A stretch of DNA of 64,000 nt from a virus, in the IMG/VR virus record IMGVR_UViG_3300005471_000012, positions 1-64,000 of that record. The stretch is one strand, 5' to 3'. This document shows, in pieces, positions 2-46,101 of this stretch. How positions within the stretch are numbered: the stretch's first letter is position 1; each line of letters begins with the position of its first letter. Made by a program: the position numbers and the translations under genes. The notes beneath the pieces were generated by a model, which was not told where the DNA came from, ran no database searches, and saw only the letters and a program-made list of their open reading frames with translations.

Positions 2-193
2 TGCGCGCAGACCGATCCGGAGGCGTTCTTCCCGGAGAAGGGCGGATCGACCAGGGAAGCCAAGAGAGTGTGCCGGAGCTGCGAGGTACGGGCCGAGTGC
101 CTGGAATACGCGCTGGAGCACGGTGAGCGCTGGGGTATCTGGGGCGGCCTTTCCGAACGCGAGCGTCGCCGCGTGAAGCGCGAGGCCGCGTGA
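2..193 (+). CDS. whiB: WhiB-family Fe-S transcription factor (WhiB2/WhiB-like), 5' end outside window
   Basis: Not in the ORF track. Frame 2 reads CAQTDPEAFFPEKGGSTREAKRVCRSCEVRAECLEYALEHGERWGIWGGLSERERRRVKREAA*, with four Cys and the GIWGG motif. Confidence 0.97.
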   Translation, partial: CAQTDPEAFFPEKGGSTREAKRVCRSCEVRAECLEYALEHGERWGIWGGLSERERRRVKREAA

Positions 194-708
194 TGGCCAT
201 CGCAGACACGCTGACCGCCGAGGCAGGCCGCGAGCGCCGGGCCATGCAGGCAGCCCGGGTCACCGATGAGGAACGGGCCGCGTGCCGGGGCGCCCTGGAC
301 AAGCCCGCCGAACGGCTGGGCTTCGCTGACCTGGTCCTGCTGGTGCGCTACTACAGGGCCGCAGCCCGGCTGCAGCCATCAGCAGCGGCCGCGAGCATGC
401 TGCACACGGCCATCGGCCACCTGGCATTGCTTGGAGGCGGCCGTATGAAGACTCGCGGGCTGCTCGTGCCATCCCCGGCAGAGGCGCAGCAGAGCAGGGT
501 CATGGTCCTGGCTGACTTCACGCCAGCGGAAGCCGACGCGTATAAGCGGGCTCGCACGATTCCCGCAGGCCAGCTGACCGTCGAGCAGGCCCGGCTGCGG
601 GTCCGCTACCACGCAGCGGAGGTCGGCAGGCTGCGCGAAGCCGAACAGAGGCTGGCTCGGGCTGAGCACGACCTGGCCATGGCCGAATTCACTCAGGCGG
701 TGGCGTGA
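190..708 (+). CDS. hypothetical protein with an internal two-fold repeat
   Basis: Start overlaps the whiB stop. Two similar halves (T.EE.A...A...P...L......L.VRY). Confidence 0.7.
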   Translation: MMAIADTLTAEAGRERRAMQAARVTDEERAACRGALDKPAERLGFADLVLLVRYYRAAARLQPSAAAASMLHTAIGHLALLGGGRMKTRGLLVPSPAEAQQSRVMVLADFTPAEADAYKRARTIPAGQLTVEQARLRVRYHAAEVGRLREAEQRLARAEHDLAMAEFTQAVA

Positions 709-1181
709 TGGCAAGCGGCTACCGGACCCCCATCGTCATTGCCGCCGTGCTCGTGACTGCGGCCGGCCTCTCGGGTCACGGTTACAACTCGCAGCTGTGG
801 CACGCCGGCGAGCTGTCGGCTTCTGGCCCTCATTCGCACGGCAAGATCGTCCGGATGGGCCGTCACATGGCCGCGCAGTACGGCTGGACGGCCGGCAACG
901 GCCAGTTCGCCTGTCTCAACGAACTGTGGACGCGCGAGTCTGGCTGGGATCCGTACAACACCTACCCGAGCCACGACACGTCTCCGTCGACGCCCTCCTC
1001 GGCGATCACGACGGCGTACGGCATCCCGCAGGCACTGCCCGCGCAGAAGATGGCCACCGCCGGCCCGGACTGGCAGGCGAACCCGCGCACGCAGATCAAA
1101 TGGGGGCTCGGCTACATCAAGGGCAGGTACGGCAGCCCGTGCGCAGCCTGGAACTTCGAGCTAGCGAACAACGGGTACTGA
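705..1181 (+). CDS. secreted lytic transglycosylase-like (SLT/lysozyme-like) protein
   Basis: N-terminal signal/TM, then QFACLNELWTRESGW (catalytic Glu), AYGIPQALP, NPRTQIKWGLGYIKGRYGSPC: typical actinobacterial transglycosylase domain. Confidence 0.85.
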   Translation: MMASGYRTPIVIAAVLVTAAGLSGHGYNSQLWHAGELSASGPHSHGKIVRMGRHMAAQYGWTAGNGQFACLNELWTRESGWDPYNTYPSHDTSPSTPSSAITTAYGIPQALPAQKMATAGPDWQANPRTQIKWGLGYIKGRYGSPCAAWNFELANNGY

Positions 1182-1182
1182 C

Positions 1183-1410
1183 ATGGCCGCTCCCGATCCC
1201 CCGCCGCACTACGCAGACGACAGTCCCGCAGGGCTGGCCCGCCGCAACCACGCAACTGTCGCGCACGGGCTTGACGAACTGCGTCGGGAGATGGCACTGA
1301 ATCCGCCGGGCCGCAGGCGCATCCGCAGGGAACTGAAGCAAGAAGTGGCCAGGCTTGAAGCGCTAATGGACGTGCTTCTTGCGCAACTCAACGGAAAGGC
1401 GAACCTGTGA
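1183..1410 (+). CDS. small coiled-coil hypothetical protein
   Basis: Fills the operon gap and overlaps the next start (GTGA). Confidence 0.55.
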   Translation: MAAPDPPPHYADDSPAGLARRNHATVAHGLDELRREMALNPPGRRRIRRELKQEVARLEALMDVLLAQLNGKANL

Positions 1411-2354
1411 ATAACGAAAAGCGGCGCTTTCCCCGCTGGCCGATATTCATAATCGCCGCGCCGGCTGCCATTGCTATCTGGTCGGGCTGGGTCGGCCTAG
1501 GCGCCATGTGCGGGTTCGGCGTCGTTCACCCGCTGCCAGGAATCGTGCCAGGCTTCAAGCTGAACACCGCTATCACTCTGCCAGTTGGCGTTGAGGCATA
1601 CGGCGGCTACGCGCTGGCAGCGTGGCTGCGAGGGAACCTGCCGGCCGAGGTCCGCAAATTCGCTAAGGTGTCGGCGTTCAGCGCGTTTTTCCTTGGCGTT
1701 CTGGGCCAGGTTGCTTATCACCTGCTTGACGCGTCCGGCGTAACCCGCGCGCCGGTACCGGTCATCATCCTGGTGTCGTGCCTGCCGGTCGTGGCCCTGG
1801 CCCTGGGAACCGCGCTGGCGCACCTGCTGCCCGACGGTTCCGCGGTTCCGGGGCGCGCCCCGGTTCCCGGCCCGGAACCAGTTCCCGCCGCAGCGCCGGT
1901 TCCCGCACGCGCTACGGTTCCCGTGCCCGGGCTGGTTCCCGCTCCGGTGCTGGTTCCCGCCGCCGCGCCGGTTCCGCCCGCAGTCAGTTCCGGTGCCGCA
2001 GCGCCAGCAGTTCCCGCCCCGCCCGCCGAGAAAGCCATCACGGGCGGTCCTGGCGCCAGGACCGCCGGCCGCCGGGCGCAGCCGGGCCGGGGACGCGGAA
2101 GCGCCGGCCCGTGGCTGCCCGGCCGGATCGACCGGCGCGGCGTGCACGACCTGAACGCGCTGTTCGCCGCCATCCGGAAGGCCGCCGCGCAGTTTGAGGA
2201 GAAGAACAGCCGGGCGATCACCGGGGAGCTGATGGGAAAGGTGCTCGAATGCCGCAAGGGCGAAGCGATCGACCTCATGAGGCAAGCCGGTGTTCCGCTA
2301 AAGCGCAAGACCAGGGCTGTCGGGCAGGCGCAGGACGAGGCGGCAGGCGGATGA
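1407..2354 (+). CDS. Spd-like (plasmid spread) membrane protein, about 4 TM plus Pro-rich linker and C-terminal helical domain
   Basis: TM helices with LPVGVEAY...W and LVSCLPVVAL motifs typical of DUF2637/Spd-type proteins of actinomycete conjugative elements; lies upstream of an FtsK ATPase. Confidence 0.65.
   Translation: MNNEKRRFPRWPIFIIAAPAAIAIWSGWVGLGAMCGFGVVHPLPGIVPGFKLNTAITLPVGVEAYGGYALAAWLRGNLPAEVRKFAKVSAFSAFFLGVLGQVAYHLLDASGVTRAPVPVIILVSCLPVVALALGTALAHLLPDGSAVPGRAPVPGPEPVPAAAPVPARATVPVPGLVPAPVLVPAAAPVPPAVSSGAAAPAVPAPPAEKAITGGPGARTAGRRAQPGRGRGSAGPWLPGRIDRRGVHDLNALFAAIRKAAAQFEEKNSRAITGELMGKVLECRKGEAIDLMRQAGVPLKRKTRAVGQAQDEAAGG
1836..2015 (+). repeat. GTTCC repeat array with 18-nt period (candidate clt/TraB recognition sites)
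   Basis: GTTCC at 1845, 1863, 1881, 1899, 1917, 1935, 1953, 1971, plus 1837, 1987, 2010. Confidence 0.75.
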
Positions 2355-2478
2355 CACGCGAAGGGAAACGGGCCCGCAGCGCCGCGGGCACCCTCTCCGG
2401 AGGGCCGTCCCGTGACGGGAGCATGCGCAACGCTTATGCGCGTTGCGCATGCGCGCAACGCGCGCGCGAGGCACAGCC

Positions 2479-2781
2479 ATGATGATACCCGGGCCATTCA
2501 AGGACGCGCTACTGCGCCAGATCAGCCGGCGCGCCGAAATCGGCGGCCTGCAGAAGCAGGAACTCTACCGGCAAGCGCTCAACATCGCCGTCGGCGGCCT
2601 GCAGAAGGAACTTATCGTCGTGGCGAAGCGCGAGCCGCCGGCGAAGTCGCGGGCGGCATACCTGAAGGCGACGAAGTACGTGCAGGAACTGACCGACAAG
2701 GTAGCCGGCGTCAAGTCCGACCCGGGCTCGGTCGGCGACCTGGCTGAGCAGCTGGCCGCAATCGAGGGAGGCGCGGGATGA
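2479..2781 (+). CDS. hypothetical protein (transfer-like operon)
   Basis: MMIPGPFKDALL... with high-GC3 codons; ATGA overlap with the next gene. Confidence 0.65.
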   Translation: MMIPGPFKDALLRQISRRAEIGGLQKQELYRQALNIAVGGLQKELIVVAKREPPAKSRAAYLKATKYVQELTDKVAGVKSDPGSVGDLAEQLAAIEGGAG

Positions 2782-3407
2782 GTGCTGACAACGACTGGGT
2801 CATGCCGGAGTTCGAGCTGCTTGACCCGGAACCGGGAACCGCCCGCGCCGCGCCGGTTCCCGGCATGGTTCCGGCTCCCAGGTGGCAGCCGGTTCCGGGC
2901 CCGCGCCTGGTTCCCGCGTCAGTTCCCGGCTCGGTTCCCGCGCCGGTTCCGGTTCCCGCGCCGGCCCCGGTTCCCGGTTCCGGGCCAGGGCCGGGAACCG
3001 GCAGCGACGTGGTTCCGTATCAGGTTCCCGGCATGCCCGCCGTGCCGGACTTCGCCGACCTCGGGCCCGCGGAAATCGCCCTGGAAACCGTGCGGCACTG
3101 GGTCGGGCAAGGGCGCAAGACCGTACGTGACATGAAAGCCAGCGATAGTAATCCGCTCGGCGGCGCGGTCAAGGGCCGGCCCGGTTCCATCGAAGACCTC
3201 TTCAAGTACGCCGAGTCTGAGGAATGGGTGCCGCCGGCCAGCAACGGAAAGTATCTCGCTGCGGCCGGGAAAGCAGACTGCTACACGATCGGGCTGGCGC
3301 TGAAGATAATCGGCGGTGCCATTTCAGGTGCAGGTGACCGGCCGATGCGGCACTGGCTGCCGATCATCGCCATAGCCATAGCCATTATCTTCATCAAGTT
3401 CCACTGA
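2778..3407 (+). CDS. Pro-rich protein with C-terminal TM anchor (Spd-like)
   Basis: VP-rich N-terminus; C-terminal WLPIIAIAIAIIFIKFH. Confidence 0.65.
   Translation: MSADNDWVMPEFELLDPEPGTARAAPVPGMVPAPRWQPVPGPRLVPASVPGSVPAPVPVPAPAPVPGSGPGPGTGSDVVPYQVPGMPAVPDFADLGPAEIALETVRHWVGQGRKTVRDMKASDSNPLGGAVKGRPGSIEDLFKYAESEEWVPPASNGKYLAAAGKADCYTIGLALKIIGGAISGAGDRPMRHWLPIIAIAIAIIFIKFH
2828..3029 (+). repeat. second GTTCC/GGAACC repeat cluster (candidate clt)
   Basis: About 12 forward GTTCC copies (2856-3024) and three inverted GGAACC copies (2828, 2835, 2994). Confidence 0.7.
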
Positions 3408-3422
3408 CCGGAGGAACCCGAA

Positions 3423-4187
3423 ATGCATTTCCTGCTCGCATCAATGCGGAACCCGCTGGACATCGGGGCGATCTTGCTGCTCATCGCCCTGGCGTGCGTA
3501 TGGAAGGATTCCGCTCCGCGGTTCGCGGCATGCGCGGCGCTCGCCGGCGCCGGCATGGCCGCCTGGGAGTTCAAGGTGGCCATCAACCCGTACGCCGGGA
3601 TCCAGGTTCTCGGCGCCGGGGTGCTGCTGATCGTCGCGCTGATCACGTCAATGATCTGGGTTCTCGAGGTGATCCACGGCAAGGACCCGCACCCGTGGCG
3701 GACTCCGGCCGTGTCGGTGATCGCCGGCGCGGCCGACGCGCTGTGCATCGGGCTGCCGCACGTGATTCTCGGGACGCTCGGCGTCGGCGCGTTCGGCATG
3801 CTGTTCCTGCTCGCCGCGATCGTGCTGATGGTGAAGAAGTCCGCTGACCGGCTGGTCGCCGTGCTGGGCCTGGCCGGCGCCGGCATGGTGGCGTGGGCGG
3901 TCGGCGCGATCCTCGTCCCGTATGCCAGGTTCCGGGTCGGCGGCATCAGCGCGCTGCTCGCCGTCGACGCCGTGTTCGCCGTGATCTTGTTCTTCGAGGT
4001 GGCGAAGGGCCGCAGCCCGCACCCGTGGCGGACCCCGGTCACCGCGATGATCCTCGGCGTGGCGATGGCGCTGACGATCGGCGTCGGCGGGCATGCCGCG
4101 AACATCGGCCACCTGAGCAAGCCAGTGGTAACGGGCTTCTACCAGGCTACTCACGCGGGTCACGGCAGCAACAGGCACAAGCACTAG
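3423..4187 (+). CDS. polytopic membrane protein made of two tandem repeats
   Basis: Two ~110-aa hydrophobic halves, each containing LAGAGM.AW and EV..G..PHPWRTP. Confidence 0.75.
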   Translation: MHFLLASMRNPLDIGAILLLIALACVWKDSAPRFAACAALAGAGMAAWEFKVAINPYAGIQVLGAGVLLIVALITSMIWVLEVIHGKDPHPWRTPAVSVIAGAADALCIGLPHVILGTLGVGAFGMLFLLAAIVLMVKKSADRLVAVLGLAGAGMVAWAVGAILVPYARFRVGGISALLAVDAVFAVILFFEVAKGRSPHPWRTPVTAMILGVAMALTIGVGGHAANIGHLSKPVVTGFYQATHAGHGSNRHKH

Positions 4188-4221
4188 GGCCGGCGCAGCC
4201 GAGCAGGACAAGGGGCAACTG

Positions 4222-5349
4222 ATGATCATCTTCATCCCGTGGCTGGGGGCGTTCTTCTACTGGGCGTGGCAGCACGGCCGCGCCCAGGGTGAATCGGAAT
4301 GGCGCCGGGCCCGCACGATCATCGCCGATCATGCCCGCCGCGCCGGCCGGGCCGCGCCGCGGACCGTGCGGCAGTGGCTATGGGAGGCGTGGCGCGGGCG
4401 TGGCGTGCTGCGCCGCGGGATGCGCGGGCCGCGGCCGGGCTCGCCGCCAGGATCGGCGCCGCCGGCCGGCGGCCCGTTCCGGCGTATCGGCCGGGCGATC
4501 CGTCGAGGCCGCCGCCGTGCCGGTGCCGCGCGCCCGGCCAGTGGCCGGCTGGGGGTTTGCGACAACTGCGGCCTGCCCGTCGCCGCTCCGGCGCTGAAGC
4601 CGCAGGACCGGGAAGTAGGCGGCCGCCGTGAGCGGTGGATGGTGTGCCCGCGGTGCATGGCCGGCTTCCAGCCGTACACGGCCGACGTGACGGTCACCCG
4701 CCCGGCCCCGCTGGCGCGGCAGGTGACCGGGCCGCCAGCCGCAGCCTCCCTGCCGGTATCAGCCGTGCCCGCGCCTGTGCCGCCGGGCACGACGCCGGCG
4801 GGCCTGCCCGCCGGCACAGGCGCCGCGCCGCTGCCCGCCGCGCCGCCCGCCGCCCCCGGTAGCGCGATCACCGGCCCGGCCGCCGGCCCGCCCCTGGCGA
4901 TCGCCCCGCCCGCCGGGAACATGCCCGCCACTTCCGATCATTTCCCGGCGGCGCTGCCGCCGGCATCACAGCCAGGAGCACTCATGCCGTACCAGCCGTC
5001 CAAGCCCGGTGCCATTGCCCGCCGCAGCCCGGCCGGCGCGGTCAGAAGCGCAGCGGACAGCACCACGCACGGGCAGTGGCAGCAGACAACGACTGCGATC
5101 GCCACCGCCGTAGCGCAGGTGCCACCCGCGCTGCAGGCCATGCTCCAGGCGCTGCGGAACGCCGACGCTAGCGACCGGCAGCGCCGGGCAGTCATCGCCT
5201 GGACCGACCGGCACCTGCAGCTCATCGCCCGGGCGAAGGCAACGCTCGCCGGGGTGGACGCCAAGGTGATGCCGGTCCTGAACGCGATCGAGAGCGTGGG
5301 CGGCACGAAGGAAGTCGCCGGCATCGCCTACCACCGGAACGTCGGCTAA
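4222..5349 (+). CDS. protein with TM, Cys4 Zn site, Pro/Ala linker and C-terminal helical domain
   Basis: CDNC...CPRC; C-terminal THGQW...PV..AI..VGG..EVA domain paralogous to the next two genes. Confidence 0.65.
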   Translation: MIIFIPWLGAFFYWAWQHGRAQGESEWRRARTIIADHARRAGRAAPRTVRQWLWEAWRGRGVLRRGMRGPRPGSPPGSAPPAGGPFRRIGRAIRRGRRRAGAARPASGRLGVCDNCGLPVAAPALKPQDREVGGRRERWMVCPRCMAGFQPYTADVTVTRPAPLARQVTGPPAAASLPVSAVPAPVPPGTTPAGLPAGTGAAPLPAAPPAAPGSAITGPAAGPPLAIAPPAGNMPATSDHFPAALPPASQPGALMPYQPSKPGAIARRSPAGAVRSAADSTTHGQWQQTTTAIATAVAQVPPALQAMLQALRNADASDRQRRAVIAWTDRHLQLIARAKATLAGVDAKVMPVLNAIESVGGTKEVAGIAYHRNVG

Positions 5350-5396
5350 CCCGGGGCGCCCCGGGCCCCCGGAAAACCAGCGAAAGGGACCACGAG

Positions 5397-5702
5397 ATGA
5401 CAGTCAATGGCTACACCCACGGTGACTGGAAGATGGAGATGGCCGCGGTCCTGGGCCTTGACGGCGCGATCTACAAGGCGCTGGACGAAATGCTGGCCGT
5501 GCTGCGCGGCCCCGCGGTACGCGCAGGCCGCACGCACCTGAAGCTCGTCGCCAGCCTGCAGAAGGAATTCGCTGACGGGATCGCCGAAGGGGCGGCGGCG
5601 GTCGGCGTCGAAGACGCGCACGCGATCCCCGTCCACGAGGCGATCCAGCGCGTCGGCGGCCTCGCCGAAGTCGCCCGGGAAAAGCGTTACCACGAGAGGT
5701 AG
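5397..5702 (+). CDS. ~100-aa helical protein, paralog 2
   Basis: RBS AAAGGGA; THGDW...EDAHAIPVHEAIQRVGGLAEVAR. Confidence 0.75.
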   Translation: MTVNGYTHGDWKMEMAAVLGLDGAIYKALDEMLAVLRGPAVRAGRTHLKLVASLQKEFADGIAEGAAAVGVEDAHAIPVHEAIQRVGGLAEVAREKRYHER

Positions 5703-6264
5703 CAGCCCGGCTCCGCTTGGGAGCCGAACGGAAAGGATGCCATGCCTGCGGACCTGCTAGGCGCATACGACGTGATGCTGCGAGGCCTGACGGCGGCGGA
5801 CGCGAGCCGCCGCCAGCTCAACGGCGTTATCGGCTGGGCCTGGCATGTGGCAGCCGCCTGCCGGGCCGGCGAGGGCTGCGGCAGCACGGCAGGCATGACA
5901 GTGAACCTGGCCGGCGGCGAATACGACCACGGCTCATGGAAATCGGACTGCCGGCAGATCCTGAGCGCATTGCTGCGGCAGCAGGCGGCAGCGGAACGGA
6001 TCCGGCTAGCCGAGCTTGCCGCGGCAGCCCGCGAGGAAGCAGCCGCTGCCGCGGCCCGCAGAAGAGGCGAGCCGGGGATGGCGGCGCGCCACGACCGTGA
6101 GGCGGCCCGGCACCGGGATCGCGCCGCCCGTGCCCTGAAATGGCAGCTGGCGGCATCTGATGCCCGCGGACAGGGGTGGCTGCTGATCCGGGCCGAAGAC
6201 GCGCACGCGATCCCCGTCCACGAGGCGATCCAGCGCGTCGGCGGCCTCGCCGAAGTCGCCCGGG
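5609..6264 (+). repeat. 71-bp identical direct repeat (5609-5679 and 6194-6264)
   Basis: cgaagacgcgcacgcgatcccc...gaagtcgcccggg is identical in two adjacent genes. Confidence 0.95.
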
Positions 6265-6320
6265 TGAAGGCCTACTACCAGCTCGCCGGGCACCCGGCCG
6301 CAACGCGAGGCGCGGCATGA
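5742..6320 (+). CDS. helical protein, paralog 3
   Basis: DHGSW...EDAHAIPVHEAIQRVGGLAEVAR; ATGA overlap with the ATPase gene. Confidence 0.7.
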   Translation: MPADLLGAYDVMLRGLTAADASRRQLNGVIGWAWHVAAACRAGEGCGSTAGMTVNLAGGEYDHGSWKSDCRQILSALLRQQAAAERIRLAELAAAAREEAAAAAARRRGEPGMAARHDREAARHRDRAARALKWQLAASDARGQGWLLIRAEDAHAIPVHEAIQRVGGLAEVARVKAYYQLAGHPAATRGAA

Positions 6321-8668
6321 AACCGCCGCCGCCGGGCATGTACCGCCACCCGCGCGGCCCGGACGGCAAGCGGCTGACCCGCCAGCCGGAAGGCCCGCCA
6401 GCGGAAGGCCAGGAGCCGGAGGCAGGCCGCCGGCCGCGCCGCCGGAATGCGCTGTGGCTCGAAACAGGCCCCGGAGCCGGTGACGATGCCGCGGCGGGCA
6501 GTGAGGCGGCTGCCCGCCCGCCGGGGCCGGCCCGGGAAACCGGGACCACATGGGCCGAGCACGGCCGCGTGCTGGCCCCGTTCGCCGCCATCGCGGCCGG
6601 TGACGGGATTGCGGCCGCAGGCCAGTACCTAACCCACGGAGCCGCCGCCCTGTACCTGGCCGGCTCGGCGGTCGCCGGGGCATGGCTGGCCGTGCGTCGG
6701 CACAACAAGCGCCGCAAGTCCGCTGCGGCGTACCGGAAGAAGTCGTACTGGCTGTGGGCAGCCTGGTCGGCATGGCTGGCGCTCGCCAGCCTGGTGACGT
6801 TCTCCGGCTGGCTTGGCCTGGTGCAATGGGCGTACCTTGCCGGCGGGCTGGTGCTGAGCACTACGCCGCTATGGCGGGAGCATCAGCGGCGGAAAGCCCG
6901 CCGCGAGGCGGCCCGGGCCGTCGCCGAGGCCGCCGCGAAACTCGCCGCCGAGGCCGCCGCGAAACCGCCGGCGCTGCCGCCTGCACCAGACCCGCGGCTG
7001 ACCTTGTTCAGGGACAAGTTCTGCCACGGAGACCTGGCGGGCGCTGAACTGGAGAACTTCGCCGGCCTCGACGGCGGCTTCCGCCTCGACGTGCACCTCG
7101 ACGGCCGGTCACGCAAAGGCACCCGCCAGTTCGCCGACGACACCAGCCTGCGCGTGGAGGTCGCCAAGCTGTACGACGTGTCCTACGACCAGGCGCACAT
7201 CGAGTACGTCCCCGGCTACAGCTCGGAGCGGCGGTTCCGGGTGACGGTGATGACCCGCCGCGAGGTGCTCCGCAAGGCGGTCCGCTGGGACGGGAAGTCG
7301 ACCTTCCAGCCGTACACCGGGTCGGTGATCCTCGGCCATTACATGGACACCCGCCCGTACCGCTGGCAGCTGTGGGCCCCCCGTTCGGGCGCCCTCGGCG
7401 GCGCGATAGCCGGCATGCCCGGCCGGGGCAAGACCGGCGTGGCGCACCGGCTGGCCGGCGAGGCCGGCCTGGCGAAGATGTGCCGCGCCTGCGGCCCGGC
7501 GCGAACCTGCCAGGCCTGTGACATGGCGCGCATCGCCGCGATCTGGATGGCGGACCCGCAGATGCACGGGTTCGCGCCCTGGTACGGCAAGGCCGACGTC
7601 ATGGCGTGGGGCCCCGCCGCCACCGTGGAACTGCTGCGCTGGATCAAGGAGGCCAGCAAGTCGCGGTCCGCGGCGAACAGCGAGCACGTGTGGACCGATC
7701 ATCGTGGCCGCACTCACGAGCGCGGCAAGGGGTTCTTCGACCCGTGGCCCGGTCTCCCGCTCATCGTCGCGATCTTCGACGAGTGGGCGAAGCTGGTCGC
7801 CGATCCGGTGCACGGCCCCGAAGCGGTGGCGCTCATGGAGGAACTGCCGCTGCAGGTCCGCAAGGCCGGCCTGTGCCTGGTCCCCGTCTTCCACGCCGCC
7901 GACGTGGACGAGATCGGCGGCCGGATCATCCGCGACGCGCTGGCGAGCTGGAACGCGGTGGCCCTGCATACCGACAAGCTGTCCACCAACATGCTCAACC
8001 TGATCGGCGATCCGACCGAGCTCCCGCAGGACCTGTGGGGTGTCGCCTACGCCAAGTCAGGCCTCGAGGATCGTTCCGGCGTGCAGATGCGGACGGATGA
8101 GTTTCCCGAGATCGCCGAGCCCGGCGACGGCGAAGCCGACGTGCATGACATCGCGGCGATCATCGCTGCGGACCCGGTCGAATACGACGACGCGGTGCTG
8201 CGGGTCCTGCGCCACGAACTATTCGGCTGGACCGGCCCCGGCCATGTGATCACCGATGACAACATCGTGCCGCCCGGCGGGCTAGCGCAGCCGGCGCAGG
8301 GCGGCGGCACGGCCACGCTGATCCGGCCCGCCGCCGGGCCAGAGTCCTCGCCGCTGGCTGACTTGGCGCGGGGCATCAGGGAAGGCCTGATCCAGCCGAA
8401 CCCGGACGACCCGGATGGCGCGGCGATGCTGCTGCAGGCGCTCGAGCTGGAAGAAGCCCGGCAGGGCGCCGCGGCGTCCCTGGACACGGCCGGGCGGATA
8501 CGGCGGGCCGTCGCCGCGGCCCCCGGCCGGGACCTGTACGGCGTCATGAAAGACACCGGGCTGGACGCGTTCACCGCGATGCGCGAACTCGGCCTGCTCG
8601 TCGAATGCGGGCAGGTCACGCTCGACGCCGCCGGGACATACCGGGCGGCAGCAGGAAAGGACACCTGA
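6317..8668 (+). CDS. FtsK/SpoIIIE-family ATPase, TraB-like conjugative DNA translocase
   Basis: N-terminal TM helices, Walker A GMPGRGKT, Walker B IVAIFDE, RKAG motif, C-terminal winged-helix-like segment (LVECGQVTLDAAGTY). Start placed at the ATG overlapping the upstream stop. Confidence 0.85.
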   Translation: MKPPPPGMYRHPRGPDGKRLTRQPEGPPAEGQEPEAGRRPRRRNALWLETGPGAGDDAAAGSEAAARPPGPARETGTTWAEHGRVLAPFAAIAAGDGIAAAGQYLTHGAAALYLAGSAVAGAWLAVRRHNKRRKSAAAYRKKSYWLWAAWSAWLALASLVTFSGWLGLVQWAYLAGGLVLSTTPLWREHQRRKARREAARAVAEAAAKLAAEAAAKPPALPPAPDPRLTLFRDKFCHGDLAGAELENFAGLDGGFRLDVHLDGRSRKGTRQFADDTSLRVEVAKLYDVSYDQAHIEYVPGYSSERRFRVTVMTRREVLRKAVRWDGKSTFQPYTGSVILGHYMDTRPYRWQLWAPRSGALGGAIAGMPGRGKTGVAHRLAGEAGLAKMCRACGPARTCQACDMARIAAIWMADPQMHGFAPWYGKADVMAWGPAATVELLRWIKEASKSRSAANSEHVWTDHRGRTHERGKGFFDPWPGLPLIVAIFDEWAKLVADPVHGPEAVALMEELPLQVRKAGLCLVPVFHAADVDEIGGRIIRDALASWNAVALHTDKLSTNMLNLIGDPTELPQDLWGVAYAKSGLEDRSGVQMRTDEFPEIAEPGDGEADVHDIAAIIAADPVEYDDAVLRVLRHELFGWTGPGHVITDDNIVPPGGLAQPAQGGGTATLIRPAAGPESSPLADLARGIREGLIQPNPDDPDGAAMLLQALELEEARQGAAASLDTAGRIRRAVAAAPGRDLYGVMKDTGLDAFTAMRELGLLVECGQVTLDAAGTYRAAAGKDT

Positions 8669-9030
8669 TGAGGTCAGCTTTGGACGCCGGGCTGCCGGGC
8701 ACCGACTGGAGATTCCCGCCGCCCAACCGGGAGTATGCCGACCGGATCCTGGCCCTGTACGTCGCCCGGCAGATGCTCCCCGCGCCGTCGATGCGGTTCC
8801 TGTCGTGGGGCGTGCCGGGCGACGTCAGGAAATACGCCGGGAAACTGTACGACTGGCTGCAGAAAAACCCGTTCGACGACACCGACGGGTACACCCGCCG
8901 CGCGCAGCTCGCCCTCGCCGCCGACATGGTGCCGTCACGGACGAACGCGGACCGGCTGCTGGCGATGGCGAAAGCCAACTACGACTACGTGATGGAACCC
9001 GTCCGCGCCGCCGAGCGAGCCGCCAGCTGA
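8668..9030 (+). CDS. hypothetical protein
   Basis: TGATG overlap; RBS GGAAAGGA; GC3 bias. Confidence 0.65.
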   Translation: MRSALDAGLPGTDWRFPPPNREYADRILALYVARQMLPAPSMRFLSWGVPGDVRKYAGKLYDWLQKNPFDDTDGYTRRAQLALAADMVPSRTNADRLLAMAKANYDYVMEPVRAAERAAS

Positions 9031-9115
9031 AGACGCCGTGCCCCGCTGCACCGCCAGGCCGGCGGCGGGGCACGGACCCAAAGCCAGCAGGCCCGGCGGG
9101 AGAAAGAAGGAAGCC

Positions 9116-9475
9116 ATGGATGCCAGGCCCGCGCCGTGCAAGTTCGATGACATCTGCCGCGCCTGCGGCAACCCCGGCACGAAAGACAACCCGGTGGTGC
9201 TCCGCGCCGACGGCGGCGGCGATGAGCCGGTGCCGATCCACCGGAGCCACCCGGCCGGCCGGTCACCGTTCCCCCGGAACTGGCAGGACTTCATGGACGG
9301 CAAGATCGGGCTGCACCAGCTGGAATGCGTGCTGTGCGGCCGGGCGCCCTGTGCTTGCCGGGTCTGCGAAACGCATCAGATGACCAGCTGCGGCTGCGCC
9401 GGAACTGGCCCTCCGCTTCCGCTGACCGCGATCCTCGATGCTGCGGCGAGGGTCCGCGGCAACCCCCGCGCCTAG
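9116..9475 (+). CDS. Cys-rich putative Zn-binding protein
   Basis: RBS AAGGAAG; CRAC, CVLC, CACRVC, SCGC. Confidence 0.6.
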   Translation: MDARPAPCKFDDICRACGNPGTKDNPVVLRADGGGDEPVPIHRSHPAGRSPFPRNWQDFMDGKIGLHQLECVLCGRAPCACRVCETHQMTSCGCAGTGPPLPLTAILDAAARVRGNPRA

Positions 9476-9521
9476 CCGGCGCGCGCCAGCTAGCCCAGCT
9501 ACGACCGGAGGAACCACGGCA

Positions 9522-9881
9522 ATGCCAGTCACGTCGCTCACCGCAGAAGAAACGATTAGCCTGATCCTCGGCCTGGACGACATCGTCCTGGCCGGCGGCC
9601 GGGCGGTCGCCGTGCACCGCCCCGGCGACGTCAAGGTTAACTGGGAAAGCATGCGGCGCTCCCTCGTGCCCCCGGCGGTCAGCGACCGGCTGCTGCAGGC
9701 ACGCGCGGTCATCTGTGCCGGCCTGTCCCGCGACGGCAACTTGCACCGGGCCCCGCAGCTGGTCATCACCGACTGCGGTGGCTACGCCATCGAACTGCAC
9801 GGCGGGACGCTCGGCGTCGTGCAGCCCGCCAAGAGCCCGGGCTCGCCGGCGGTCAGCCGCGCCGGCCGGGGCAGAGCATGA
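9522..9881 (+). CDS. hypothetical protein
   Basis: RBS GGAGG; coding-like codon usage. Confidence 0.6.
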   Translation: MPVTSLTAEETISLILGLDDIVLAGGRAVAVHRPGDVKVNWESMRRSLVPPAVSDRLLQARAVICAGLSRDGNLHRAPQLVITDCGGYAIELHGGTLGVVQPAKSPGSPAVSRAGRGRA

Positions 9882-10091
9882 GCGGCTACAGCCCGCACGC
9901 CCACGTCCAGCTGCTCTACGGCGGCCGGGTCAGGGAGCAGGCGTGGAAGTGCCCCGTCAAGCGCTGCGGGGAGACCTACTACGGCACGCGGCCCCCGGCC
10001 TGCCCGTTCCATCGCGGCACGCTGATGGTCCCGAAGCGGGGGCGGCGATGAAGCCCGCCCGAACCGCCGGGCAAAGAAGAAAGGCAATCTG

Positions 10092-10526
10092 ATGCGACTG
10101 TTCACGCGCAAACAGGAGCCGGCAGGCTGGTACCCCGCCAAGCCGACGTGCCACGCCGGCAAGCCCCCGGCGGTCTTGTATTTCCACCCGGGCATGCCCG
10201 CCGCCGTGATCTACGTGACCGTTGCCCCGGTCACCGACGACGCAGGGCAGCCCCGCGTGCAGGTCACGGCCGACTGGCAGATCCGCCGGCCGCCACGCTA
10301 CATTGCCGCCCGCCCGGAGTGGCGTCTCACTCACAGCGAACTGCTGTCACCACCCATTTACGAGTCGCCGGAGGAAGCCGCTCGCGTCGCTGCCGTGATC
10401 GTGAAGCGGCTTCTCCGGGGAGCGCCTCCCTCCGGCATCATGATCGAACTTGACAGGCGCTTCGTCACCCTGATCTGCAACTGGGATGGCCGGCCGTTCG
10501 AGATGGATGCGGAGGCCGGCCAGTGA
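10092..10526 (+). CDS. hypothetical protein
   Basis: RBS AGAAAGG; coding-like codon usage. Confidence 0.6.
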   Translation: MRLFTRKQEPAGWYPAKPTCHAGKPPAVLYFHPGMPAAVIYVTVAPVTDDAGQPRVQVTADWQIRRPPRYIAARPEWRLTHSELLSPPIYESPEEAARVAAVIVKRLLRGAPPSGIMIELDRRFVTLICNWDGRPFEMDAEAGQ

Positions 10527-10859
10527 GGCCGCCGCTGTCGGCAACAGGGTCGCAGCGCCGCCGTACCCCCCATCGTGCTGCACGACTGCGGCAGGGAAGT
10601 GCGGCTGAAGGCCGACGGCTGGGGTTACTGCACCGTCTGCCGTTGCGAGTTCGACGGGGCGGGTTGCTACGAGGTGCCCCGGCCGAAGGGTGCGGCCAGG
10701 CGGAGTGGGCGTGGGTGGCACCCCAGTGCCCGCTGCACCGCAGGCGGATGAAGCTAGCCGGGCAAGGCCAGGGGTAGCCAGGCCTTCCGCCTCCCCGTGC
10801 TCGAAGCCGCCGCATCGCCTCCCGCGGCGGCGGCTTCGTCATGCATACTGGTCCCGCTG

Positions 10860-10873
10860 GTTTCACGTGAAAC
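10860..10873. promoter_or_regulatory. parS: parS centromere-like site
   Basis: Perfect palindrome GTTTCACGTGAAAC, the chromosomal parS consensus of Streptomyces and Bacillus, just upstream of the 10919 gene. Confidence 0.85.
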
Positions 10874-10918
10874 AACGTGGCGGTACGTGGTAGCACATGA
10901 CCTGGGGGAGCACGGCCG

Positions 10919-11851: not shown

Positions 11852-11980
11852 TCGGCTGGTGACTTGCGGTGGCCGATCACCGACGCGTAAACTCTTGAAC
11901 GGCCTTAAGATCACTGTGCCCTGGGACCGCCGCCGTGGCGCGGACCAGGGCATTCTGCATGCCCGGGGGGTGCGCGCCAG

Positions 11981-12226
11981 ATGCGGATCACCCGCGCGGA
12001 CGGGCTTATCGACGCCGAGCAGGCCGCCGCGATGTGCCGCGTCCGGCAGAAGACCATCCACCAGTGGGTGGCCCGCGGGCACCTGGCGAAAGCGGGCATC
12101 GGCGAGCGCACGGGCCGCAACGGCAGAACCTACAAGGTGAGCCTGTTCGACCCGGCCGCGGTACGTGCGGCCGAGCTGAAACTCCGCGGCCCGGCCCGGC
12201 GGATCATCCTGACTCGCGCCGCCTGA
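11981..12226 (+). CDS. MerR/excisionase-like HTH DNA-binding protein
   Basis: LIDAEQAAAMCRVRQKTIHQWVARGHL...LFDPAAV. Confidence 0.8.
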   Translation: MRITRADGLIDAEQAAAMCRVRQKTIHQWVARGHLAKAGIGERTGRNGRTYKVSLFDPAAVRAAELKLRGPARRIILTRAA

Positions 12227-27401: not shown

Positions 27402-27935
27402 ATGCCGCGCAGCCGCACCGTCGCCGATCGTGAACGCGATGCCAAAGCCCTGTCCCTGCGCGCCCGCGGGTACACGCACCGGCAGATTTCCGCGCAGCTC
27501 GGCTGGAAATCACCCGCGTCCGCCGTCGGCGCCTGCACCCGCGCCATGCAGGACATGTACCGGGAGGATATAGACAAATGGCGCCAGATTGAGCTGGACA
27601 AGCTCGATGACCTGACCCGCGAGGCCTGGGACGCGATGCAGGAAGCCCACTACCTCGTCTCCCAGGGCAAGGTGGTCAAGGACGACGACGGCACGATGCT
27701 CGTCAACGCCGTCGACAAAGTCAGCCAGCTCGGCACGCTTCTGCTGAAGATCAGCGAGTCCCGCCGAAAGCTGCTCGGCATCGACGCCCCGCCGCAGAAG
27801 GCGCCGACGCCCGATAATCTTGATGCCGAGATCGAGACGCTGGTCAAGCAGCTTTCGGGTCTGGGCGACGTGCCGAAGCAGGTGGCGGACGGCACGGTGG
27901 CCGCTATCGAGAGCGCGGCCCCGCCGGGGGCCTGA
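27402..27935 (+). CDS. terS: terminase small subunit
   Basis: N-terminal HTH (ALSLRARGYTHRQISAQLG), RRKLLGIDAP motif, RBS GAGGAGG, directly before terL. Confidence 0.8.
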   Translation: MPRSRTVADRERDAKALSLRARGYTHRQISAQLGWKSPASAVGACTRAMQDMYREDIDKWRQIELDKLDDLTREAWDAMQEAHYLVSQGKVVKDDDGTMLVNAVDKVSQLGTLLLKISESRRKLLGIDAPPQKAPTPDNLDAEIETLVKQLSGLGDVPKQVADGTVAAIESAAPPGA

Positions 27936-27942
27936 GGCCGCA

Positions 27943-30450
27943 GTGCCGCAGCCATCGTGGGATCAGCTTCCGCCTCATGCGAAGCAGCAGCTCCGCGACC
28001 GGCTCGCGGCTGAGCTGGCGGTGCGGCGCAGTACCACCCCCCGGCCGTGGCGGAAGCTGGCGCGGCCGAAGCAGCTGCCGCCGGACGACCCGCGGCACTG
28101 CCTGCCGGATGCGAACGGCTACAAATGCGGGTGCGACAAGCCCGATATGACCTTCAATGTCTGGCTCGTGATGGCCGGGCGCGGGCTGGGCAAAACGTGG
28201 CAAGGCGCCCAGTGGCTAACGGAACAGGCAATTCGGTATCCAGGGACAGAGTGGGCCGTGGTGGCCCCAACCTTCAGGGACGTGCGCAAAACGGCTATAG
28301 AGGGCACAACGGGCATTCTGGCAGCACTCCAGCCGGGCGAGCTGGCCAGCTATCACCGCAACGAGCTGATGATCACCCTCGCGGGAGGGTCCCACCTGTT
28401 CGGCTACTCGGCCGATAATCCGGAGCGCCTGCGGGGCGCCAACCTGTCCGGTGCATGGTGCGTCGCCCGGGGGGAACCCGTACTCACATCTCGCGGGCCC
28501 GTGCCGATTGAGGACGTGCGACCCGGCATGAGGGTGTGGACGCGGCAGGGATGGCGCCGGGTGCTCGCGCAGCGGCTGATGGCCCGCGCCGCGCCCGTTG
28601 TGCGCGTCGTTACAGACGGAGGGGCGAGCGTCCGGGTCACGGCAGGCCACCGGATTTGGACGCAACACGCCGGGTGGATGGAAGCACGAACGCTGGCCCC
28701 TGGCGATATTCTTAATGTATGGAATTCGCCTACGGGCCACCGGCCTGGATCGAATGGGAGGGCGTCCGCTTCTATCGCCGCAGCAAGAGCGGCCATTACG
28801 CGGATCGCACCGGCTGCCTGCTTCACGTCGCCGTCTGGGAGCGCGCCCATAAGCGACGGATACCTGACGGCCACGCTGTGCATCACAAGGACGAAGATAA
28901 GGTCAACAACGGCGCCGGCAACCTCGAACTGCTCACCAAGGCCGAGCACACCAGGCACCATAACCTCACCGAGCCCCGCGGCATTGCCGTCCTCGCCACA
29001 GCCGAGCGGTCCGGCATATCGCGCAACTCATGGGCCAACCGGCCGGAGCGCGATTTCGCCTGTAACGTCTGCGGCACCTCGTTCAAATCCAAGGGCCAGC
29101 GGGCCATGTACTGCTCGCCCAACTGCCGCGCCGCCGCCTTCCGCGCTGATCACCGCAAACGCGGACAGGACGCGCTGGCCGACCGGCAATGCGAATGGTG
29201 CGGCGACAGCTTCACCCCGCCAGACCGGCGCACCGTCTATTGCGGCCCCGCCTGCCGCCAGAGGGCAGGAGACGGCGCGAAGCGCGCCCGCAACCGCGCA
29301 CGGCTGGGAATTCCGGCCTGCGCAGCCTGCGGCAACCTGTTCACCCCCAAGGACGGTCGCCAGCGATTCTGCTCCGGTCTCTGCCGTCAGCGGCATGCGC
29401 GTCGCGAGGCTCGAGCCCGCTGGGCGGGCTGACGTATACGACCTCCAGGTCGAGGGCGTTCACGAGTTCGTCGTCGGCCGCATCCTGGTCCATAACTGCG
29501 ATGAGCTAGGTTCGTGGCGGTACCCGCAGACCTGGTACGAGGGCCTCATGCCCGCCTTGCGGGTAGGCGAGTTCCCCCGGGTGGTCGTCACGACGACCCC
29601 CCGACTCGTCCCGCTGATCAGGGACCTGGTCGGCCGCGATGACGGCTCTGTGCACATTACCCGCGGGTCGACGTGGGAGAACGCCGACAACCTGTCTGCG
29701 GCGGCGCTCGCGGAACTCCGGCACCGCTACGGCGGCACGAGGCTGGGCCGGCAAGAGCTCGAAGGCGAGCTCCTCGAGGACGTTGATGGCGCACTGTGGG
29801 CCCGCGATGACATTGACGCGGCCCGCGTGAAGCTCGGCGAGGTGCCGCAGCTGCACCGCGTCGTCGTCGCGATCGACCCGGCCACCACGTCGGGCGAGGA
29901 TTCCGACCAGACGGGCATCGTGGTCGTCGGGGAGGGCCCGGGCGGGCACGGCTACGTGCTGGCCGACCTGACGTTCCGGGGCACCCCGGATGCGACGATG
30001 CGCAAGGCGGTCGGCGCCTACCATCAGTACCAGGCCGACTCGGTCGTGGCAGAGGTCAACAACGGCGGGGATTACATCCGGTCCCTGCTGCGGACCGTTG
30101 ACCCGCAGATCCCGTACCGGTCGGTGCGGGCGACCCGCGGCAAGCGGACCCGGGCCGAGCCGGTGTCTGCGCTGTACGAACAGCGCAGAATGCACCATGT
30201 CGGGGTGTTCCCGGAGCTAGAGGACGAGATGTGCTCGTGGACTCCGGATAGCCTCCTGGGCAGCCCGGACCGCATGGACGCACTTGTCTGGGGGTGTACC
30301 GAGCTGCGCGGCCTGTCGGTCGGCTCGTGGCGTGAAGCATACGGCGTGATCATTTGCGCTACCTGCCAGGAGCCATACATGCCGGAAGGCAAGACGGCCT
30401 GCCCGTGGTGCGGCGCCGACGTTCCGGGTGAGGCCGAGGTGCCAGCGTGA
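27943..30450 (+). CDS. terL: terminase large subunit containing an intein
   Basis: Walker A GRGLGKT, RLRG, split Walker B GAW|CDEL, VVTTTP, GRQELEGE, nuclease VAIDPA...DQTGIVV...SPDRMDA. Confidence 0.95.
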   Translation: MPQPSWDQLPPHAKQQLRDRLAAELAVRRSTTPRPWRKLARPKQLPPDDPRHCLPDANGYKCGCDKPDMTFNVWLVMAGRGLGKTWQGAQWLTEQAIRYPGTEWAVVAPTFRDVRKTAIEGTTGILAALQPGELASYHRNELMITLAGGSHLFGYSADNPERLRGANLSGAWCVARGEPVLTSRGPVPIEDVRPGMRVWTRQGWRRVLAQRLMARAAPVVRVVTDGGASVRVTAGHRIWTQHAGWMEARTLAPGDILNVWNSPTGHRPGSNGRASASIAAARAAITRIAPAACFTSPSGSAPISDGYLTATLCITRTKIRSTTAPATSNCSPRPSTPGTITSPSPAALPSSPQPSGPAYRATHGPTGRSAISPVTSAAPRSNPRASGPCTARPTAAPPPSALITANADRTRWPTGNANGAATASPRQTGAPSIAAPPAARGQETARSAPATAHGWEFRPAQPAATCSPPRTVASDSAPVSAVSGMRVARLEPAGRADVYDLQVEGVHEFVVGRILVHNCDELGSWRYPQTWYEGLMPALRVGEFPRVVVTTTPRLVPLIRDLVGRDDGSVHITRGSTWENADNLSAAALAELRHRYGGTRLGRQELEGELLEDVDGALWARDDIDAARVKLGEVPQLHRVVVAIDPATTSGEDSDQTGIVVVGEGPGGHGYVLADLTFRGTPDATMRKAVGAYHQYQADSVVAEVNNGGDYIRSLLRTVDPQIPYRSVRATRGKRTRAEPVSALYEQRRMHHVGVFPELEDEMCSWTPDSLLGSPDRMDALVWGCTELRGLSVGSWREAYGVIICATCQEPYMPEGKTACPWCGADVPGEAEVPA
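28459..29496 (+). mobile_element. intein (346 aa) inserted in the TerL Walker B motif
   Basis: Block A CVARGEPV, block B VTAGH, blocks F/G VYDLQVEGVHEFVVGRILVHN, with Cys at +1. Confidence 0.93.
28719..29432 (+). CDS. HNH homing endonuclease nested in the intein in an alternate frame
   Basis: LHVAVWE...IPDGHAVHHKDEDKVNN...NLELL...H..HH plus three CxxC...C...C Zn ribbons. Confidence 0.88.
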   Translation: MEFAYGPPAWIEWEGVRFYRRSKSGHYADRTGCLLHVAVWERAHKRRIPDGHAVHHKDEDKVNNGAGNLELLTKAEHTRHHNLTEPRGIAVLATAERSGISRNSWANRPERDFACNVCGTSFKSKGQRAMYCSPNCRAAAFRADHRKRGQDALADRQCEWCGDSFTPPDRRTVYCGPACRQRAGDGAKRARNRARLGIPACAACGNLFTPKDGRQRFCSGLCRQRHARREARARWAG

Positions 30451-44147: not shown

Positions 44148-44732
44148 CTAGCTGGCCGCCCTAGCCCGCGCTATCGTGCGGTACACGGTCGGCCGCGAGA
44201 CGTCGAACAGCTCGGCCAGCTCGGTAATGTTGTGGCCGCCGGCCCGGTGCAGGGTGAGCAGGTGCGCTTGCCTGGTAGCGGACAGCTTGGGCGGCTTGCC
44301 CCTGAGGTGCCCTTTGGCCCGTGCGATGGCCATGCCCTCGCGGGTGCGCATGCGGAGCAGGTCGACCTCGAATTCGGCGAAGATCGCGAGTATGGCGAAG
44401 AACATCTTGCCCATCGGGTCGGCCGGGTCGTAGATGGTGCCGCCGAGTGAGAGTTTCACCCCGCGGGCCGTCAGGTCGTCGGCGATGTCCTGGAAATCGC
44501 GCACCGATCGCGCGAGCCGGTCCAGCTTGGGCGTCACGAGCGTGTCCCCGCTTCGCACGGCGGCTAGCGCTTTGCCTAGTTCCGGCCGGTCGCGGTTGGT
44601 GCCGGTTAGCCCGTGGTCCAGGTAGATGCGCCCGGGAGTCACCCCCAGGTCGCGGAGGGCCGCTTTCTGGGCGGCAAGATCCTGCTTTACGGTACTGCAC
44701 CGGGCGTAGCCCGTAAGCGTGTCGTTTCCCAT
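44148..44732 (-). CDS. small serine recombinase (resolvase/invertase) with C-terminal HTH
   Basis: GYARCST (catalytic Ser), G....RP.L, GDTLV.PKLDRLARS, ERT-like MRTREG, VSRPTVYR; TACACT 6 nt before the ATG. Confidence 0.95.
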   Translation of the reverse strand: MGNDTLTGYARCSTVKQDLAAQKAALRDLGVTPGRIYLDHGLTGTNRDRPELGKALAAVRSGDTLVTPKLDRLARSVRDFQDIADDLTARGVKLSLGGTIYDPADPMGKMFFAILAIFAEFEVDLLRMRTREGMAIARAKGHLRGKPPKLSATRQAHLLTLHRAGGHNITELAELFDVSRPTVYRTIARARAAS

Positions 44733-46101
44733 GCGGGGAGTGTACGGTAAGCGGGGCTGAGCGGTCAAATCCACCGTACACCCTATCTGAGACGGTCTTT
44801 CGGCAGGTCGGCACCTGACGGCAAGTGCATTTGGCGGCGTCCGCTGAAGGTTCCCCTACCGGACGCTTCGTAAACGGACATACCGGGCGCCCGTGCGCGG
44901 GGCTGAGCGGGCCGGTGCCGAGCCGGCGCCGGCAGGTACCCGGGCATACGGAAAGCCCGCCGATCGACCGCGTACGGCCAGATCAGCGGGCTAGTTCCGG
45001 GCGGATGATCAGTTTCTGCCCGCGGTGCGCCGCATCTCGCGCGGCAGGGTGAGCGACACGAGCCACACGACAGGCCACATGGCCGCGCAGAATGCGGCCA
45101 GCAGCCGGCCCGGCTTGTCCGGGCTCACGCTTCGGCGCTCTTGGCGAACCGCGCGGCCAGCCATGCCGTGTCCGCCTGGGCGAGCTGCGACCAGGCTAGG
45201 TAATCGGCGGGGTCGCCGGTAGCCTGCCAGCGGAGAAACATGGCGTGCTCGGCGTGGCGGGCCCTGATCGAGTCGGCCAGCAGGTTACGGGCCTGCTTTC
45301 GCGAGATGCGCCGGCGTCCGATGTACGGCCGTGCGGTCGCCTCCCGGGCGGCGTCGCCGGCAGGCGCGTATGCTTGGGCGTGGCGCCCGCGGCGGCCTGC
45401 GATCACCGGGCTTGGGCTGGTGGTCATGGGTCTGGTCCTTTCATCCTTGGCTAGGATTCCGATCGGCCGGCCTGGCCGTCGCGGCGCCGTCCCGGCAGGA
45501 CCGGGGCGGCACCGTGACAGCCCGCCTAGCGGCTGAGCCGCTTGTCGCGCTGCTCGTTGTTCTCGCACCGCCAGATGTGGCCGTCCGGGGTTGGCACCCG
45601 GACTAGCCGTTTCCCGACGTCGCCGGCCTGGACGTAGCCGATCACGTCGCCAACGGGGATCAGGCCCTCGGTCGTGCGGATGCGGAGCTTGCCGACGTCA
45701 TCCGCCGTGATCGTGTAGAACACCCGCTCGGCAGGCCGGGGCTCGGCCTCGGGCTCGGGCTTGAATATTTCCCGCATGGTCTCTCTGTCCTTCCGTGCCG
45801 TGGTGCGGTCGGGATGCCGGGCGGTTACCGGCTGTACTTGAGATAGTGGGCGGGCTTCTCGCCCGTGGTGACCTTGCGGATTGCCGCGTCAATCTCGGCG
45901 CGGTTCTCCTGAATGAACTTGCGCATCGACAGGCCCGACGACTGCCACCAGTCGTAAAGCCCTTCATCGTTGTTAATCCAGCCCTCCCGGCTGTCGCCAC
46001 CTCGCGGCATCGCTGGCCGTCCTTTCACGCTGGCACCCTGCCAGTCATCAGCGCGGGTAGGGTGAGGTTCCCGCGGACGCCGGGCGGGCCGGCGTTTCGG
46101 C

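Follow-up and report, generated by a model that had tools for sequence, protein, structure and literature searches.

Streptomyces plasmid-phages are reported both to conjugate and to form phage particles: for pZL12 (phage ZL12; GQ919031; Zhong et al. 2010, J Bacteriol 192:3747), transfer is described as requiring the major tra gene plus two neighbouring genes, pFP4 has also been described (Chen et al. 2012, Plasmid 68:170), and pSLE1 and PhiNon1 are presented as relatives or analogues of such plasmid-phages. This dual mode has been little noticed: in a 2025 review of plasmid mobility, virions are the only means by which phage-plasmids are taken to move. The element considered here stems from an uncultured source, a rhizosphere metagenome, and the window analysed comprises 64,000 nucleotides, the first 64 kb of the 91,148-nt IMG/VR record IMGVR_UViG_3300005471_000012. 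We put at slightly better than even the chance that the block from whiB to ~10.5 kb is a double-stranded DNA (dsDNA) transfer module of the type found in actinomycete plasmids and actinomycete integrative and conjugative elements (AICEs), carried in a tailed-phage genome that is likely a plasmid prophage and would thus have two routes of spread. A first-pass annotation of this DNA had proposed a conjugative phage-plasmid with an implied novelty that was overstated, since pZL12 and pFP4 were already published; the element adds a new, uncultured lineage to a kind described before and, the principle having been established since 2010 with pZL12, contributes breadth rather than a new concept.

The likeness to pZL12, a ~90-kb circular element, is one of layout: tailed-phage and partition genes are combined with an FtsK-like tra gene and with adjacent membrane-protein genes on the same strand (in pZL12, the FtsK-like 71c and its partners 72c-73c adjoin head genes). 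However, the two have no nucleotide or close protein similarity, their phage backbones are unrelated, and pZL12.71c matches the ATPase family described below only remotely (hhalign probability 95%, E 4e-8, 255 columns); pZL12 has ParAB, an integrase and GntR regulation, whereas in the element the operon is led by whiB, ParA is the only partition protein and an integrase is lacking. SCP2 (AL645771; Brolle et al. 1993) encodes a TraA of the same family, with membrane and DUF2637 proteins upstream of the ATPase, yet the plasmid is 31 kb long and lacks phage genes, the region opens with a GntR regulator, the protein is annotated as traX plus traA, and identity of TraA to the window ATPase is low (16 bits in a direct phmmer comparison). 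pIJ101 Tra and pSVH1 TraB are collinear with the window ATPase over the pre-motor, motor and winged helix-turn-helix (wHTH) parts, and small overlapping operon genes accompany the ATPase as they do for spd; in contrast, the element is without KorA/TraR and without SpdA, SpdB or KilB homology, and its clt is only a candidate. PhiNon1 (Nonomuraea gerenzanensis plasmid III, NZ_LT559120; PMC5431353), described as a plasmid-phage, carries an ATPase of the same family (217 bits with the A2 hidden Markov model (HMM)) and a DUF2637 gene upstream, but it is 59 kb long, is reported to integrate at a tRNA-Val attB and has unrelated phage genes; the passages of PMC5431353 consulted neither discuss nor test its transfer module.

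Evidence for the transfer reading includes the kinship of a 783-residue ATPase encoded at 6314-8668, which by profile and tree comparison belongs to the same family as SCP2 TraA, with chromosomal FtsK outside it. An exhaustive phmmer search with the ATPase yielded 160 representative homologues, of which 109 formed the profile and alignment. The family HMM scored SCP2 TraA at 171.6 bits (E 6.5e-54) over its full length and SCP2 TraX at 29 bits in the N-terminal part, while FtsK of E. coli and of Streptosporangium scored 47-49 bits over the Walker core only. An HMM built from the 18 closest homologues ranked SCP2 TraA (34.7 bits) above pIJ101 Tra (20) and E. coli FtsK (16), with PF01580-positive plasmid TraBs at 7-15. 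Likewise, tblastn with the family member of pPZG101 reached SCP2 traA, annotated as 'major plasmid transfer protein', and hhalign aligned the family with pIJ101 Tra (KilA) over 408 columns that reach from the pre-motor domain into the wHTH, at a probability of 98.8% (E 1e-16).

The maximum-likelihood tree, which took in two chromosomal FtsK sequences and no EccC sequence, split both FtsK proteins from all plasmid proteins (support 100). SCP2 TraA fell inside the family (98) together with pPZG101, and the window ATPase in a clade of 16 rows (100) that is sister to the clade holding PhiNon1 (97); because of long branches, the exact placement of pIJ101, pZL12 and the canonical TraBs in this tree is unsafe. 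Identity with EccC is ruled out by architecture alone, as the protein has a single motor domain rather than three and a DNA-binding wHTH. The TraB-like assignment made at first pass is therefore upheld against FtsK by grouping with SCP2 TraA and pIJ101 Tra and against EccC by domain architecture. Five plasmids with family members contain no other PF01580 gene, so that the family protein is their sole candidate translocase. A separate point concerns SCP2 itself (AL645771, 8057-10368), where the abutting traX and traA align to the N- and C-terminal parts of one full-length family member; judged from this alignment, the two may together be one translocase gene that has been split or frameshifted.

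In domain terms, profiles and modelling make a solid case that the ATPase is an FtsK-superfamily protein with one motor and a wHTH. Helices at residues 71-215 form the N-terminal membrane anchor (four long helices in the model), Walker A is GMPGRGKT (K372), Walker B is DE (488-489), and the C-terminal winged helix lies at ~735-780; the family-invariant residues G371, K372, R450 and E489 are all kept. As a single sequence, the protein had no match in Pfam, PHROGs, NCBIfam or the PDB, and AlphaFold run on it alone gave an unusable model with a predicted local distance difference test (pLDDT) score of 42. With the profile, matches in the PDB were EccC (4nh0, 5e-20), FtsK (2iuu, 6e-15) and also HerA and TcpA, and profile positions 586-646 (the C-terminal 60) matched winged-helix proteins. 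With the 109-homologue alignment, the AlphaFold model reached a mean pLDDT of 84.9 (>90 in the wHTH) and comprised an alpha/beta motor preceded by long N-terminal helices and followed by a C-terminal winged helix; its best Foldseek matches were FtsK motor domains (3e-14, 411-468 aligned columns), with the conjugation coupling protein TcpA and EccC ranked next. The transmembrane (TM)-FtsK-wHTH architecture read at first pass is thereby confirmed by profile and fold only. Immediately behind Walker A, residues ~386-403 (~7469-7523) form an insert of the pattern C-x2-C-x(5-6)-C-x2-C ('LAKxCxxCGxxxxCxxCD') that is conserved in the close subfamily, has a zinc-ribbon-like look and was not seen in FtsK or pIJ101 Tra.

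Gene order tells a similar story. The succession of whiB, small genes, a DUF2637 membrane protein, two to four further proteins and the ATPase recurs in S. rimosus pPZG101, the HUAS 15-9 plasmid, the NBC_01643 plasmid, a 58-kb Kitasatospora plasmid and PhiNon1, and canonical tra loci also pair TraB with DUF2637 or a lytic transglycosylase. A pattern scan of 185,579 species genomes found the closest genomic module on an 878-kb Spirillospora contig, which has in common with the window whiB, the 209-aa protein, all three paralogs and the ATPase (40% identity); a tyrosine integrase lies ~2 kb downstream of the ATPase and is followed by host-like genes, which is an AICE layout, and there are no partition genes. 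In a second relative, from a Streptosporangiaceae metagenome-assembled genome (MAG), DUF2637 is encoded upstream and ParB downstream, with the paralog trio kept. Given the plasmid synteny and these two relatives, the module is part of the plasmid/AICE gene pool. The nearest modules also suggest that the host is a member of the Streptosporangiales. The Spirillospora island (Spirillospora sp. NZ_JBICUD010000004, ~368-14694) reads in order HTH_31-DUF5753 regulator, WhiB, membrane proteins, paralog trio, TraA-family ATPase and tyrosine integrase, and it adjoins a TROVE/Ro60-VWA gene.

Module and downstream genes are contiguous on the record. Logan contigs of the probable source run cover 77-5638, 5650-6223, 6235-17109 and 17083 onwards with no differences and at a depth of 11.4-11.7, breaking only at whiB and at a duplicated 71-bp block (5609, 6194); a single 10,875-nt contig of this second assembler spans 6235-17109, from the ATPase to the downstream genes. 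Runs of two other studies contain identical short pieces of both the module and the downstream genes. No direct repeats >15 nt flank the module, and the left flank, searched for as an exact pattern in metagenome contigs, gave no match. Because of the Logan continuity, the equal depth, the pieces from other studies and the lack of long flanking repeats, a mis-join or an att-bounded AICE nested within the record is unlikely, and the continuity on which the first-pass annotation had made its proposal depend is borne out by independent contigs. Its further statement that no element boundary exists holds insofar as no integrase or att repeats surround the module, but the operon ends at 10526, the genes after the ATPase have no assigned function and phage-family genes begin at 10919, with a DNA-binding protein and a MerR/Xis-like protein (phrog_1568, phrog_2474).

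The same molecule carries phage and partition genes. In addition to the large terminase and a portal-MuF fusion (Table 1), the record encodes a minor tail protein, a tail-spike-like protein and a GH25 lysin, and the 318-aa product of 61827-62783 is similar to viral proteins whose function is unknown. As these occur with ParA, a parS-like site and a small serine resolvase and without an integrase (a tyrosine integrase was searched for in the record and none was found), the carrier is most likely a phage-plasmid that persists as a plasmid prophage. Of the conjugative phage-plasmid proposed at first pass, the phage and plasmid parts thus stand on identified genes, whereas transfer itself is something we infer. 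Neither megablast nor tblastn of the window against INPHARED phages gave a match; tblastn with the portal reached remote phages only, and portal and ATPase had no close relatives in INPHARED or PLSDB.

Both record ends fall within whiB. The record opens inside the gene, residues 1-57 of the truncated product corresponding to positions 7-64 of the 65 of Pfam Whib (PF02467, E 3.3e-24), and its final open reading frame (ORF; 90954-91148) has no stop codon and ends in '...TPWA'. Compared with the Spirillospora WhiB ('HWTELALCAQTDPD'; W-x5-C spacing), the two ends fit one whiB with ~11 nt missing, and the frame is also satisfied. The N-terminal part of whiB therefore probably lies at 90954-91148, and the fit of the end and start peptides suggests that the genome is circular and almost closed, or else permuted, and that its assembly was interrupted in the conserved core of whiB. 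A protein database places the ATPase on a contig of 162,122 nt, against 91,148 nt for the IMG/VR record.

All genes from whiB to 10526 are on the plus strand, with gaps of no more than 88 nt and five 4-nt stop/start overlaps; the successive gaps from whiB to the ATPase are -4, -4, 1, -4, 88, -4, 15, 34, 47, 39 and -7 nt, and the tight operon stops at 10526, before a 392-nt intergenic gap. The single operon from whiB into phage genes that had been proposed for 705-8668 is supported in its gene order and coupling, but whiB lies outside that interval and is cut by the record start; the ATPase starts at 6314 on the record, against 6176 at first pass, the end being 8668 in both. A promoter and terminator scan stayed at chance level, and the sequencing runs listed include no RNA dataset. 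For the 315-aa membrane protein, 22 of the 30 nearest language-model clusters are DUF2637 (score 0.90), which serves as a lead and no more; the protein has no Pfam match, and hhalign against four plasmid DUF2637 proteins was negative. Two of the three paralog genes share an identical 71-bp DNA block (5609-5679 and 6194-6264), and an HMM of the common paralog domain had no match in Streptomyces plasmids.

Table 1. Features of the putative transfer module and of its phage and plasmid context (window positions, unless the full record is named)
Feature	Position	Strand	Basis or remark
whiB-like regulator, C-terminal 63 aa, operon head, cut by record start	2..193	+	PF02467 E 3.3e-24
172-aa protein, function unknown	190..708	+	4-nt overlap at each side
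Secreted or membrane-anchored transglycosylase-like cell-wall hydrolase (putative)	705..1181	+	phrog_12661 'transglycosylase' 5e-30; NCBIfam NF052397 (AggPromo_Cterm) 2.3e-29; hydrophobic N-terminus
75-aa ORF	between transglycosylase (705-1181) and 315-aa membrane protein (1407-2354)	+	
315-aa membrane protein, Pro/Val-rich linker	1407..2354	+	TM segments; position of DUF2637 proteins in plasmid tra loci
GGTTCC(C)G direct repeats, cluster 1, mostly 18 nt apart	1836..1975	+	candidate clt-like site, low confidence
112-aa ORF	between 315-aa protein (1407-2354) and 209-aa protein (2778-3407)	+	
209-aa Pro/Val-rich protein, C-terminal TM helix	2778..3407	+	homologue in Spirillospora module
GGTTCC(C)G direct repeats, cluster 2	2855..3028	+	commonest 8-mer in 7 copies; no 8-mer above 6 copies in any of 500 synonymous resamplings
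254-aa polytopic protein, ~8 TM, internally duplicated	3423..4187	+	
Three paralogs (375, 101, 192 aa), common C-terminal helical domain	4222-5349, 5397-5702, 5742-6320	+	upstream of ATPase also in Spirillospora and Streptosporangiaceae MAG loci
783-aa FtsK-superfamily ATPase	6314..8668	+	profile, fold, tree
Five small, tightly packed genes, function unknown, operon end	8605..10526	+	
parS-like palindrome GGTTTCACGTGAAACA	10859..10874	.	within 392-nt gap after operon; 0.02 chance matches expected
Large terminase (TerL)	27820..30450	+	phrog_979 6e-32
Small serine resolvase	44148..44774	-	sole recombinase found in record; plasmid-like multimer resolution as context
Portal-MuF fusion	50217..53387	+	phrog_2662 6e-62
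ParA ATPase	88602-89552 of full record	-	

According to the literature, Spd homologues are often unassignable by sequence, and spd genes are small, often overlapping and 3-7 per operon. The module has this arrangement, with small genes next to the translocase, five 4-nt overlaps of stop and start codons and gaps of at most 88 nt, and Spd proteins are without Pfam models. The first-pass naming of Spd proteins is not borne out by homology to known Spd proteins and draws only on position, coupling and hydrophobicity.

A candidate for the cis-acting site lies within two of the module genes. Between 1836 and 3183 there are 20 copies of GGTTCC, compared with a density of 0.39 per kb outside this stretch; the flanks of the repeats are variable, and the repeats encode Val-Pro of PVP repeats via the rare codon GTT, which accounts for 79% of Val codons in the repeat stretch and 9% genome-wide. 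The top 8-mer, GGTTCCCG, is found 11 times across the two genes, while no 8-mer exceeded nine copies in 500 synonymous resamplings. Since TraB proteins are known from the literature to bind 8-bp direct repeats in clt, GGTTCCCG is a candidate clt, an analogy to which we give clearly less than an even chance. The same test on the DUF2637 genes of relatives was significant for the NBC_01643 plasmid, marginal for the Streptosporangiaceae MAG and not significant for SCP2 and the Kitasatospora plasmid; with such mixed results among relatives, 8-mer clusters in DUF2637 genes were rejected as a general clt signature.

If the module acts as its relatives suggest, its core would be a membrane-anchored, hexameric-type FtsK-like motor of the SCP2 TraA family whose C-terminal winged helix, by analogy to TraB of pSVH1 and pIJ101, would bind to a cis site carried by the element. 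Unprocessed dsDNA would next be driven by the motor across the hyphal envelope and into an adjacent hypha, with the transglycosylase opening the peptidoglycan and the co-translated membrane proteins acting as Spd-like partners in spread across septa. In this way the element could use two horizontal routes, virions and virion-independent hyphal transfer, provided that the motor is expressed in lysogeny, that the DNA site is recognised and that transfer takes place, all of which would be expected rather than observed.

Several points weigh against such a role. The ATPase misses PF01580, the model used in AICE surveys (E up to 10, and none in the six-frame record either), whereas pIJ101 Tra passes with 38.8 bits, and related-locus searches found no close ATPase homologues in viral contigs, for which reason the module may be a recent, perhaps unused acquisition. 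The membrane proteins showed no tblastn or hhalign similarity to SpdB2, SpdB3, Spd79, SpdA, SpdB or KilB, and the protein with ~8 TM segments is an orphan with no relatives among 5.8 billion proteins. No GntR-type TraR/KorA kil-kor partner was found in the 91-kb record (the PF00392 search gave no match above the cut-off), and whiB heads the operon instead. The GGTTCCCG repeats could have arisen by slippage in Pro-Val coding repeats. As for the carrier, PHROGs did not identify a major capsid protein in the record, and IMG/VR classes the record as linear, with a CheckV completeness estimate of 81%, against the circular closure suggested by its ends. The function of this element is, finally, read from sequence.

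As an alternative, the module might segregate or move the plasmid prophage within the mycelium, through septa and into spore compartments, in concert with WhiB, ParA and the parS-like site, which would not be conjugation proper. A developmental WhiB regulator at the operon head, the presence of ParA, the parS-like site and a BldC-like gene on the same record, and reports that the same proteins of Streptomyces plasmids also drive intramycelial spreading all speak for this; the family nevertheless includes SCP2 TraA, which is defined by intermycelial transfer, and the nearest module sits in an AICE-like island with an integrase and without partition genes, so we consider a purely intramycelial role unlikely, the two roles not being exclusive. 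It is less likely still that the block is a recently captured AICE or plasmid fragment without a role in the phage life cycle, or a nested AICE whose boundary is undetectable or outside the record. Such an origin would suit the GC content (65-73% over the record, with 73% at 4-8 kb and 68-70% elsewhere), the non-phage contexts of the nearest relatives, with none in viral contigs, and the position of the module at the record edge, but it is countered by the intactness of all ORFs and of all invariant motor residues, by the tight translational coupling, by the missing integrase and flanking direct repeats, and by the identical element sequence in three studies.

Two further readings are given very little weight beside that of a dsDNA transfer module. 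The best PDB profile match is EccC, and the ATPase is immediately preceded by three small helical paralogs that share their C-terminus, as might be expected of an EccC/EssC-like secretion ATPase that exports them as substrates in a small type-VII-like system. We regard this as very improbable, since the protein has one motor rather than three together with a DNA-binding wHTH, Foldseek puts FtsK and TcpA first, SCP2 TraA is nested in the family (albeit in a tree built without EccC), and the paralogs match neither WXG100 nor any other type VII secretion family at E up to 10. An assembly chimera, in which a contig of a conjugative plasmid or AICE had been wrongly joined to a phage contig, is the least probable of all: the sequence is a metagenome contig whose ends fall in whiB at its conserved core, a place where de Bruijn graphs become tangled, yet the second assembler's contig runs across 6235-17109, the depth is equal on the module and downstream with breaks only at the 71-bp duplicate and whiB, and identical pieces of both parts occur in two other studies.

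If the module works, a plasmid prophage could reach new hosts via both infection and hyphal contact, so that a receptor-limited host range would be relaxed and the prophage would spread without killing its donor. None of Pfam, PHROGs and NCBIfam recognises the transfer-ATPase family to which its motor belongs. For pIJ101 Tra and many family members, the PGAP product name is 'helix-turn-helix domain-containing protein' or 'hypothetical protein', and MOB-suite types the PLSDB plasmids that carry pIJ101 Tra or this ATPase family as non-mobilizable, so that conjugative capacity of the Streptomyces type is hidden by annotation. Because the HMM libraries miss the family and the PGAP names are uninformative, conjugative capacity is probably undercounted in actinomycete plasmids, AICEs and phages. 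A wider proposal can be offered only tentatively, with the odds against it: that an SCP2 TraA-type family missed by FtsK/TraB HMMs gives tailed phage-plasmids of mycelial actinomycetes a routine virion-free route, with clt written in the coding GGTTCCCG repeats within Pro-Val stretches of two spd-like genes, and that phage-plasmid surveys scoring mobility by relaxase, mating-pair formation (MPF) or PF01580 miss such elements. Apart from the module, the window encodes a XamI-family restriction endonuclease at 23996-24916 on the minus strand (PF09572, 2.6e-38).

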